From assembly GCF_013122565.1 (NCBI RefSeq), contig NZ_CP053258.1: a stretch of 64,000 nt of DNA, one strand, 5' to 3'. Positions 61,120 to 62,131 of the stretch are shown in pieces. How positions within the stretch are numbered: the first letter of the stretch is position 1; every line of letters starts with the position of its first letter. This DNA is from Escherichia coli. Its GTDB lineage: Bacteria; Pseudomonadota; Gammaproteobacteria; Enterobacterales; Enterobacteriaceae. The notes below the pieces were generated by a model. It was not told the origin of the DNA. It did no database searches and worked only from the letters and a program-made list of their open reading frames with translations. The position numbers and the translations under genes were made by a program.

Positions 61120-61133
61120 TTAAGATTATTCCG

Positions 61134-61177
61134 CTGGCGGGTCGATTTATTTACGTAAATCGGCCCGCTTTCTTTTT
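61134..61177 (+). terminator. Intrinsic terminator after speA
   Basis: ggcgggtcgattta...taaatcggcccgc hairpin followed by tttcttttt. Confidence 0.75.
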
Positions 61178-61264
61178 ATATATTCTTAAAAATAATTTAG
61201 CTGCTTTTCTTATTAAATAATCTCCCTACAATCGCTGCATTAATTAAATGCAGAGGGAACGGTT

Positions 61265-61996
61265 ATGAAAAAATGGAAAGTACGTAGCGCGTTGATAGCA
61301 TTAGTCGTGCTGCTGGCCGGTTGTTCCAGTAATGCGCAGTATAATAGCAGTGCATCGGGCAATGTCGGCACCGCCTGGGGTGGGGATGTGCACTCATCGG
61401 TTCAGGGCGTATCTGCTGAACGAGCCTGGCGCGATCCTGCAGAGATGATCGTTATTAGTTATTCGACTAATGTTCCTTCCGGCTACGACCGCGTTTATAG
61501 CATTCGTATTAACGAACTGGAATATGCTATTCGCGATGGTAATTTTAATTCTCTACCTATTACGCGGGCTTATGATTCATCCAATAATGAACCACGCTAT
61601 ATTGTCCATGCCAGAGTCGGAATGAATTATCAATTATATGTCCGTAATTACAGTCGTAACACCAACTACGAGATCGTTGCTACGGTTGATGGCCTGGATG
61701 TGCTGAACGGCAAGCAAGGTTCGCTGAATAACAACGGCTATATTGTGAATGCCGGAGATTCTTTAGCGATTAAAGGATTCCGCAAAGATAAACATACCGA
61801 AGCGGCTTTTCAGTTCGCCAACGTTGCTGATTCCTACGCCGCCAATTCGGCGCAAGGCGATGTGCGTAATACCGGGGTAATCGGCTTTGCCGCCTTTGAA
61901 TTACAAGGCCCGGCGCAAAACGCGATGCCGACGTGCTCTGGACAAGCCTTTCCGGCGGACAACAATGGCTATGCGCCGCCACCGTGTCGGAAATAG
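61265..61996 (+). CDS. Lipoprotein of unknown function (243 aa) between speA and speB
   Basis: Signal peptide with lipobox MKKWKVRSALIALVVLLAGC|SSN; Asn/Tyr-rich mature protein; own terminator downstream. Confidence 0.7.
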   Translation: MKKWKVRSALIALVVLLAGCSSNAQYNSSASGNVGTAWGGDVHSSVQGVSAERAWRDPAEMIVISYSTNVPSGYDRVYSIRINELEYAIRDGNFNSLPITRAYDSSNNEPRYIVHARVGMNYQLYVRNYSRNTNYEIVATVDGLDVLNGKQGSLNNNGYIVNAGDSLAIKGFRKDKHTEAAFQFANVADSYAANSAQGDVRNTGVIGFAAFELQGPAQNAMPTCSGQAFPADNNGYAPPPCRK

Positions 61997-62063
61997 CAAC
62001 CTCGCTTGATGCCTCGCCCATTTAAGGCGATAATTAACACAAACTTGTGTTTCGCAAATCCAA

Positions 62064-62104
62064 CCCTTCCTCGTCGGGCCTAACGACGCGGAAGGGTTTT
62101 TTTA
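62064..62104 (+). terminator. Intrinsic terminator after the lipoprotein gene
   Basis: cccttcc...ggaaggg hairpin followed by ttttttt. Confidence 0.75.
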
Positions 62105-62131
62105 TATCGACTTTGTAATAGGAGTCCATCC

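Follow-up and report, generated by a model that had tools for sequence, protein, structure and literature searches.

We consider it reasonably probable that the interval between speA and speB in the Escherichia coli DNA analyzed here (the window, a stretch of 64,000 nucleotides) carries an independently transcribed and functional lipoprotein gene, the product of which would, by prediction, be a periplasm-facing protein attached to the outer membrane. The stop codon of speA lies at 61119 and the start of speB at 62132, so that the interval spans positions 61120-62131, i.e., 1012 bp, in agreement with the spacing of about 1 kb given in an earlier note on this DNA. In the annotation of MG1655 (K-12), the end of speB is at 3083797 and the start of speA at 3083935, leaving a gap of 137 bp; the figure of about 140 bp that the same note gave for K-12 was thus accurate. 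Its reservation, that the gene might already lie between speA and speB of K-12, does not apply, since the K-12 gap is gene-free. The features of the locus are collected in Table 1.

Table 1. Features of the speA-speB locus in the window.
Feature	Position	Strand	Basis
speA, biosynthetic arginine decarboxylase, 658 aa	59143..61119	+	ORF; same start and length annotated in relatives
speA intrinsic terminator: 15-bp stem, 4-nt loop, T-run	61136-61179 (hairpin 61136-61169)	+	sequence scan and folding
AT-rich upstream region of the lipoprotein gene	61170-61264	+	27% G+C over 95 nt
Lipoprotein gene, 243 aa (signal peptide, residues 1-19; Cys20 codon, 61322-61324)	61265-61996	+	ORF
Promoter-like element before speB: TTGATG, 17 nt, GATAAT	62006-62034	+	sequence scan
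Conserved hairpin and U7 before speB	62062-62105 (hairpin 62062-62098)	+	folding and conservation
speB, agmatinase, 306 aa	62132..63052	+	ORF; annotation in relatives

The lipoprotein gene and its distribution

The 243-aa ORF with an LLAGC lipobox reported earlier was found as described. Its N-terminus reads MKKWKVRSALIALVVLLAGC, with Cys20 as the cysteine of the lipobox, and it combines the features of the lipoprotein class, namely a positive start, a hydrophobic core and a lipobox of the form [LVI][ASTVI][GAS]C (MKKWKVR-SALIALVVL-LAGC). The lipobox and an invariant Cys20 were observed in 52/52 homologues in an alignment of diverse members. Next to this Cys, the window protein has Ser; in the family, the position is occupied by S, A, Q, T, G, N or M, never by Asp. 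Because Asp is missing at this position, the E. coli sorting rule, which considers the residue after the Cys, predicts that Lol would deliver the lipoprotein to the outer membrane; surface exposure is possible. The mature protein is rich in Asn, Tyr and Ser (10.8, 6.3 and 9.4%), as had been noticed from its translation, which corresponds to 2.8, 2.2 and 1.6 times the norm when approximate E. coli averages are used.

The ORF is uninterrupted, with 243 aa, in E. coli O157:H7, strain Ec1119, Salmonella and Klebsiella aerogenes, and is also intact across Escherichia and Citrobacter. We obtained dN/dS values of 0.13-0.16 between E. coli alleles and of 0.08 in comparison with Salmonella. The intact ORF and the low dN/dS, together with the large family of homologues and the invariant columns presented below, indicate a real gene under purifying selection. 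A reading of the ORF as a remnant in decay or without function, which could appeal to the G+C content at third codon positions (0.48, compared to 0.63 for speA/speB), to the truncated or interrupted copies in some E. coli and Shigella (clusters of 129-181 aa fragments) and to a split match to the gene in strain A30, is hardly credible in the face of the intact 243 aa across four genera (Escherichia, Salmonella, Citrobacter and Klebsiella) and the invariant motifs carried by about 4200 family clusters, and is essentially refuted by dN/dS values of 0.08-0.16.

The whole interval with the gene was present in 3542 of the approximately 5426 complete RefSeq E. coli genomes (about two thirds), and the short K-12-type interval in 1867 of them (34%). 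Among named strains, K-12 and UMNF18 carry the short allele, and O157:H7, O145:H28 and one ST131 strain the long allele, as does CFT073 judging by its gene numbering. The gene is already annotated and is an ordinary part of the E. coli pangenome. Existing annotations call its product "hypothetical protein", "lipoprotein" or "membrane protein"; the exact protein of the window is WP_171460382.1 / QJU27052.1, "hypothetical protein [Escherichia coli]". The "lipoprotein" WP_000758914.1 of E. coli O157:H7 is encoded by the same gene at the same position and has the same length of 243 aa, with approximately 97% identity and 7-8 amino acid differences. The old locus tags, deduced from the numbers of neighboring tags, are ECs3813 (Sakai) and c3523 (CFT073). 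A literature search for the gene and its tags found no published functional study.

Outside E. coli, the gene was detected in E. albertii, E. whittamii, two unnamed Escherichia species, Citrobacter portucalensis, Kluyvera georgiana and Intestinirhabdus alba. All the other Escherichia species sampled carry it, and one cluster member is labelled E. fergusonii. In K. aerogenes, the order speA-lipoprotein-speB is the same. In Salmonella enterica, an "outer membrane lipoprotein" of 243 aa with 74% identity, encoded directly 3' of speA, is the ortholog (presumably STM3085, judging by the gene numbering). The Salmonella locus has the same speA terminator and upstream TACAAT as the window, but differs downstream, where the lipoprotein gene is followed by an island with a GntR regulator and a sugar-alcohol dehydrogenase instead of speB.

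As originally posed, the finding is of little consequence, since the gene is a routinely annotated member of the pangenome. What modest value it has lies partly in K-12, which is devoid of a conserved envelope lipoprotein carried by most E. coli, the other sampled Escherichia and Salmonella. This absence is probably the reason why a family of thousands has neither a name nor a Pfam model.

Transcription signals and the hairpin upstream of speB

The earlier note had attributed to speA a terminator of its own, and a 15-pair hairpin followed by a T-run indeed lies directly 3' of speA. It folds at -23.4 kcal/mol (z = -6.0). This terminator is kept in Salmonella and K. aerogenes with altered stem bases, and is absent from the K-12-type allele. 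The region upstream of the lipoprotein ORF was likewise confirmed as AT-rich, with 27% G+C compared to 55% in speA and speB. It contains a -10-like TACAAT at 61227-61232, preceded by C and conserved in Salmonella, a palindrome, CTGCATTAATTAAATGCAG, at 61235-61253, which is not conserved in Salmonella, and a GAGGG ribosome-binding site at 61253-61257, 7 nt before the ATG of the lipoprotein gene. A scan for a strict sigma-70 promoter upstream of the gene found none. The C-TACAAT -10 element looks sigma-S-like, and the lipoprotein gene is probably transcribed from a weak AT-rich promoter of its own.

Upstream of speB, the geometry of the promoter-like element (TTGAAC/TTGAAT, 17 nt, GATAAT) is kept across Enterobacteriaceae, with the lipoprotein gene present or absent. 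The second hairpin, farther downstream and 66 nt beyond the lipoprotein stop codon, has a folding energy of -24.4 kcal/mol (z = -4.1) and occurs a single time in the window. The K-12-type short allele carries it without any change, and Klebsiella has an identical or nearly identical copy. The 29-mer core of the hairpin recurs letter for letter in 63 GTDB species representatives, which range from Escherichia to Pantoea and Erwinia; these species were picked for carrying this very sequence, so that the conservation of the hairpin among them is partly by construction. At the 61 loci with enough flank, conservation falls from approximately 90-100% to approximately 40% within a few bases on either side of the hairpin. 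In these species, the hairpin sits 35-75 nt, rarely more, upstream of speB, and 29-31 nt (Enterobacteriaceae) or 14 nt (Pantoea) downstream of the TTGAAC-17 nt-GATAAT element. No Rfam match was obtained at E <= 1 within 60900-62400.

Since this hairpin is present unchanged in the K-12-type short allele, it is not specific to the lipoprotein gene, and it is a speB-leader or terminator element that is independent of this gene. The gene had been credited with its own intrinsic terminator: the hairpin and U7 do exist, but they are common to K-12 and to 63 species and do not belong to the gene in particular. The lipoprotein transcript would probably end at this conserved hairpin before speB, or read through it.

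Within the hairpin, the loop is conserved as strongly as the stem, which a plain terminator would not require. A conservation so far beyond the needs of a plain terminator may merit a regulatory study.

Origin of the short allele

The K-12 interval shares with the window the geometry of the speB promoter (TTGA-type -35, 17 nt, GATAAT), the hairpin and U7, and the speB ribosome-binding site. It is without the speA terminator, the AT-rich region and the lipoprotein gene. The flanks of the long and short alleles are 98-100% identical. Among the 63 species sharing the hairpin, the lipoprotein gene lies between speA and the hairpin in nine and is missing in 54; the gene-less species have a short speA-hairpin spacer, often filled by REP-like palindromes. 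The gene-less layout is widespread and probably the older one for the family as a whole. Within Escherichia, the order is reversed: as all the sampled species carry the gene, the gene-bearing allele is the older one and the short allele of E. coli a derived one.

Local alignment against shuffled sequence did not demonstrate homology for the 60 nt of the short allele, and a comparison of promoter blocks at fixed spacing was used instead. Over its 35-nt promoter block, the short allele agreed with the E. coli long allele at only 19/35 positions, compared to 30/35 with a gene-less Pluralibacter and 29/35 with a gene-less Kluyvera. Among the long alleles of different Escherichia species, the same block showed an agreement of 31-34/35 (0-4/35 differences). 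Because the promoter block of the short allele resembles that of gene-less genera, the most likely origin of the short allele is a replacement of the gene-bearing segment, by way of recombination within the highly conserved speA/speB flanks, and not a clean deletion.

A plain deletion within E. coli, the leftover 60 nt of which diverged later, is the less probable origin, although it keeps a real chance of being correct. It would fit with the presence of the gene in every other Escherichia species sampled. Across E. coli genomes, the short allele varies very little, which suggests a single origin. In addition, the part of the short allele nearest to the hairpin (CACAA..TTGTG..CAAATCCAA, 23 nt) resembles the E. 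coli long allele, and no donor was found for the replacement: a K-12-specific 24-mer was absent from all 100,044 species representatives. By contrast, divergence after a deletion would have to account for a promoter block at 19/35 with the long allele and 29-30/35 with Kluyvera and Pluralibacter, between flanks that are 98-100% identical, when the Escherichia long alleles differ by merely 0-4/35 in this block. We therefore prefer allelic replacement. Whichever its origin, the locus offers a clean natural case of alleles with and without a gene between two conserved genes, in several genera.

Protein family, fold and possible function

The lipoprotein belongs, by sequence similarity, to a large uncharacterized proteobacterial family without a Pfam entry. 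A word-indexed search recovered 287 homologues, and an exhaustive profile search 4214 clusters (50% identity) at E <= 1e-3, of which 3264 at E <= 1e-10. The family members in the profile search were all single-domain proteins of 160-385 aa; in the longer ones no domain fusions were found, the extra length consisting of low-complexity N-terminal linkers. The alignment of 52 diverse members contained 30 invariant columns including C20. The conserved motifs of the family are LGTxWGE, RNYS, YEIVATVDGLDVLNG, GFRK, AAFxF, YAAN, GVIGxAxFEL and the C-terminal AFPAD..YAPPP, and the conserved polar and aromatic residues include T36, W38, R53, N128, E136, D142, R173 and several Tyr. About 40% identity and about 30 invariant residues are kept over the whole span between the E. 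coli protein and those of Variovorax and Paracoccus.

The description of the mature protein as one of unknown function agreed with our searches. Neither the query (at E <= 10) nor any of 72 family members (at E <= 0.001) matched a Pfam entry, NCBIfam matches were restricted to the signal peptide and far under the cut-offs, and a profile search of the PDB returned no match beyond one chance match (E = 0.45). PADLOC had no match for the lipoprotein, and PHROG weak N-terminal matches only (E >= 0.014).

An AlphaFold2 model built with the family alignment as input was confident, with a mean pLDDT of 79.6 and mostly >90 in the core, and was all-beta. In this model, a disordered tether runs from Cys20 to about residue 30 and is followed by a core of about 14 strands (approximately residues 33-213). 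The C-terminal tail is modelled as disordered, yet it is conserved in sequence (AFPAD..YAPPP at 228-240). A Foldseek search against AFDB50 gave a best 50 that were all labelled "(outer membrane) lipoprotein" or uncharacterized, with relatives from Proteus, Providencia, Kingella, Ralstonia, Acinetobacter, Pseudomonas, Halomonas, Paracoccus and myxobacteria. The model resembles weakly both TRAF/MATH-like and fungal DUF7918 beta-sandwiches, and the predicted fold is a kind of beta-sandwich that usually serves in binding.

Taking fold and conservation together, we propose a binding role. A flexible tether of 12-40 residues would present the all-beta sandwich of about 180 residues from the outer membrane, and the model suggests that the invariant polar and aromatic surface, with the conserved tail, would bind a conserved envelope ligand or a partner protein. 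The lipoprotein would thus be a dispensable accessory factor of the envelope and not a polyamine enzyme. No characterized homologue or conserved gene neighbor pointing to a specific ligand was found.

Away from the speA-speB locus, distant homologues (approximately 40% identity) were found in other contexts: between hisD and hisC in the his operon of Comamonadaceae, adjoining recO, and, for one of them, adjoining an aldehyde dehydrogenase gene. A homologue in Trabulsiella also occupies another locus. Ten contexts were examined for a common partner gene and none was found, except for a Rap1a-like gene in Comamonadaceae. There, the homologue is directly followed by a gene for a secreted protein of 115 aa that matches Pfam Rap1a (E = 1.5e-4), and the lipoprotein/Rap1a-like pair shows 73% identity between two contigs. 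This neighbor is a weak hint to a protective or inhibitory role in the periplasm.

The main functional rivals to the binding role are an inhibitor or immunity-like role and an enzymatic one. In the former, the lipoprotein would be a periplasmic inhibitor or orphan "immunity-like" protein directed against cell-wall-degrading enzymes (type VI amidases, lysozymes), which would explain a patchy, cassette-like distribution. Such inhibitors commonly take the form of outer-membrane lipoproteins with a beta-sandwich fold. Presence and absence of the gene are indeed patchy within genera, and Rap1a is a type VI immunity family, but the Rap1a-like neighbor is confined to one clade and missing in E. coli. 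Moreover, neither mark of type VI or cell-wall hydrolase immunity was observed: none of the ten contexts had an adjacent effector gene, and PADLOC and NCBIfam provided no family match. A protein that keeps about 40% identity and 30 invariant residues as far as Variovorax and Paracoccus would also be unusually conservative for this role, which we consider unlikely.

That the protein is an enzyme with an envelope polymer as its substrate (peptidoglycan, LPS or a periplasmic glycan), instead of a binding protein, seems to us quite unlikely. The numerous polar positions that are invariant, among them an acidic cluster (E136/D142/D145) in the YEIVATVDGLDV motif, fit an enzyme as well as a binding protein, but no catalytic family was similar by sequence or fold. 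One AFDB relative, at rank 45, is labelled "N-acetylmuramoyl-L-alanine amidase"; this label is an unverified automatic annotation of a 26%-identical protein.

Given the position of the gene, a part in the speA-speB polyamine pathway also has to be weighed: the lipoprotein could be co-regulated with it and tether or regulate an envelope-associated arginine decarboxylase, or sense agmatine or putrescine. In favor of such a part, the gene is flanked by speA and speB in Escherichia, K. aerogenes, C. portucalensis, Kluyvera georgiana and Intestinirhabdus and directly follows speA in Salmonella, and the lipoprotein transcript probably enters the speB promoter and leader. Against this stand the strong terminator between speA and the lipoprotein gene, and the absence of the gene from 54/63 species with the same speA-hairpin-speB layout and from 34% of E. 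coli. Neither co-transcription with speA nor a family-wide polyamine linkage, the marks of membership in the speAB operon, was observed. As the distant homologues occur in unrelated contexts (his operon, recO and others), we see no polyamine link beyond an inherited position, and regard such a role as very improbable.

A bolder reading can also be formulated, to which we give a slim chance. With this protein, study might begin of a very large family of outer-membrane lipoproteins that has no name as yet (about 4200 clusters), and its TRAF-like sandwich and conserved C-terminal peptide might neutralize or dock a periplasmic enzyme, for example as an innate protection against cell-wall-degrading toxins; the gene might also move between enterobacterial genera as a cassette, via homologous recombination in the nearly invariant speA/speB flanks.

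Among known systems, the MliC/PliC lysozyme inhibitors and the Rap1a-type immunity proteins are likewise small, outer-membrane-anchored or periplasmic, beta-rich, dispensable and patchy in distribution. Unlike these families, the lipoprotein has neither a profile match nor a nearby toxin gene, and its conservation across classes is deeper.

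Loss of the lipoprotein gene and a probable allelic replacement

We compared the gene-less K-12-type allele of the speA-speB interval (locus L002, 2921-2982) with the long allele that carries the lipoprotein gene (window 61997-62060). The promoter block of the short allele is a different sequence type: it agrees with the long allele of E. coli at only 19 of 35 positions, but with gene-less Kluyvera and Pluralibacter at 29 to 30 of 35. The comparison suggests that the K-12 short allele arose by allelic replacement rather than by deletion. No donor of the K-12-type allele was found. 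Some genomes of E. coli and Shigella have a truncated or interrupted lipoprotein gene, evident from fragments of 129-181 aa (homologue clusters P0024 and P0036, and entries of Shigella dysenteriae) and, in E. coli strain A30, from a match that is split into two places. The lipoprotein gene is therefore undergoing independent loss in some lineages.

In species without the lipoprotein gene, REP-like or other palindromic repeats of 30-150 nt, differing between species, lie directly 3' of the speA stop codon (comparison loci L015, L020, L026, L035, L040, L042, L043 and L065). This position looks like a hotspot of small insertions.

Elements flanking the lipoprotein gene

The promoter-like element upstream of speB consists of TTGATG and GATAAT separated by 17 nt, and the hairpin begins 27 nt further on. 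The 29-nt core of this hairpin, its loop included, is identical across 63 species, which range from Escherichia to Pantoea and Erwinia, a conservation that is partly by construction, as these species were picked by exact match to the core; in the flanking sequence conservation falls to about 40%. The hairpin gave no match in Rfam, and it may be not a plain terminator but an attenuator or protein-binding leader of speB. Upstream of the lipoprotein gene, the palindrome is kept in O157:H7 and is not conserved in Salmonella or Klebsiella. Its folding as RNA was not significant (z = -1.8), and it could serve as an operator.

Features of the speA-speB interval and of the Comamonadaceae loci
Feature	Coordinates	Position or source
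Perfect palindrome CTGCATT-AATTA-AATGCAG	window 61235-61253	directly 5' of the lipoprotein ribosome-binding site
Promoter-like element and hairpin with U7	window 62006-62105	just 5' of speB
Rap1a-like gene beside the lipoprotein homologue	L008 6824-7171	Comamonadaceae
Rap1a-like gene beside the lipoprotein homologue	L079 1049-1405	Comamonadaceae

Source strain and remainder of the window

In a comparison with the 5426 complete RefSeq genomes of E. coli, the best matches to segments 60700-62500 and 30000-36000 were only 98.1-98.6% identical; the source strain is therefore not close to any of them. Segment 30000-36000 was at least 80% covered by a single contiguous match in only one of these genomes. 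The exact lipoprotein sequence of the window is present in NCBI as E. coli entry QJU27052.1. Positions 30000-34500 match genes that adjoin yqgA and speC and are annotated as "SbcC/MukB-like Walker B domain-containing protein" and "DUF3322 domain-containing protein", and this stretch may be a Wadjet-like defence island. The small ORFs 5' of speA (58389-59130) correspond to yqgD, yqgG and yqgB as annotated in relatives, where yqgB is described as an acid stress response protein; their arrangement between metK and speA is that of K-12, with nothing unusual.

Homologue context in Comamonadaceae

In Comamonadaceae, the lipoprotein homologue is paired with a secreted Rap1a-like protein of 115 aa within the histidine operon, where the two genes lie between hisD and hisC. 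This neighbour matches the Pfam family PF18602 (Rap1a) with E = 1.5e-4.
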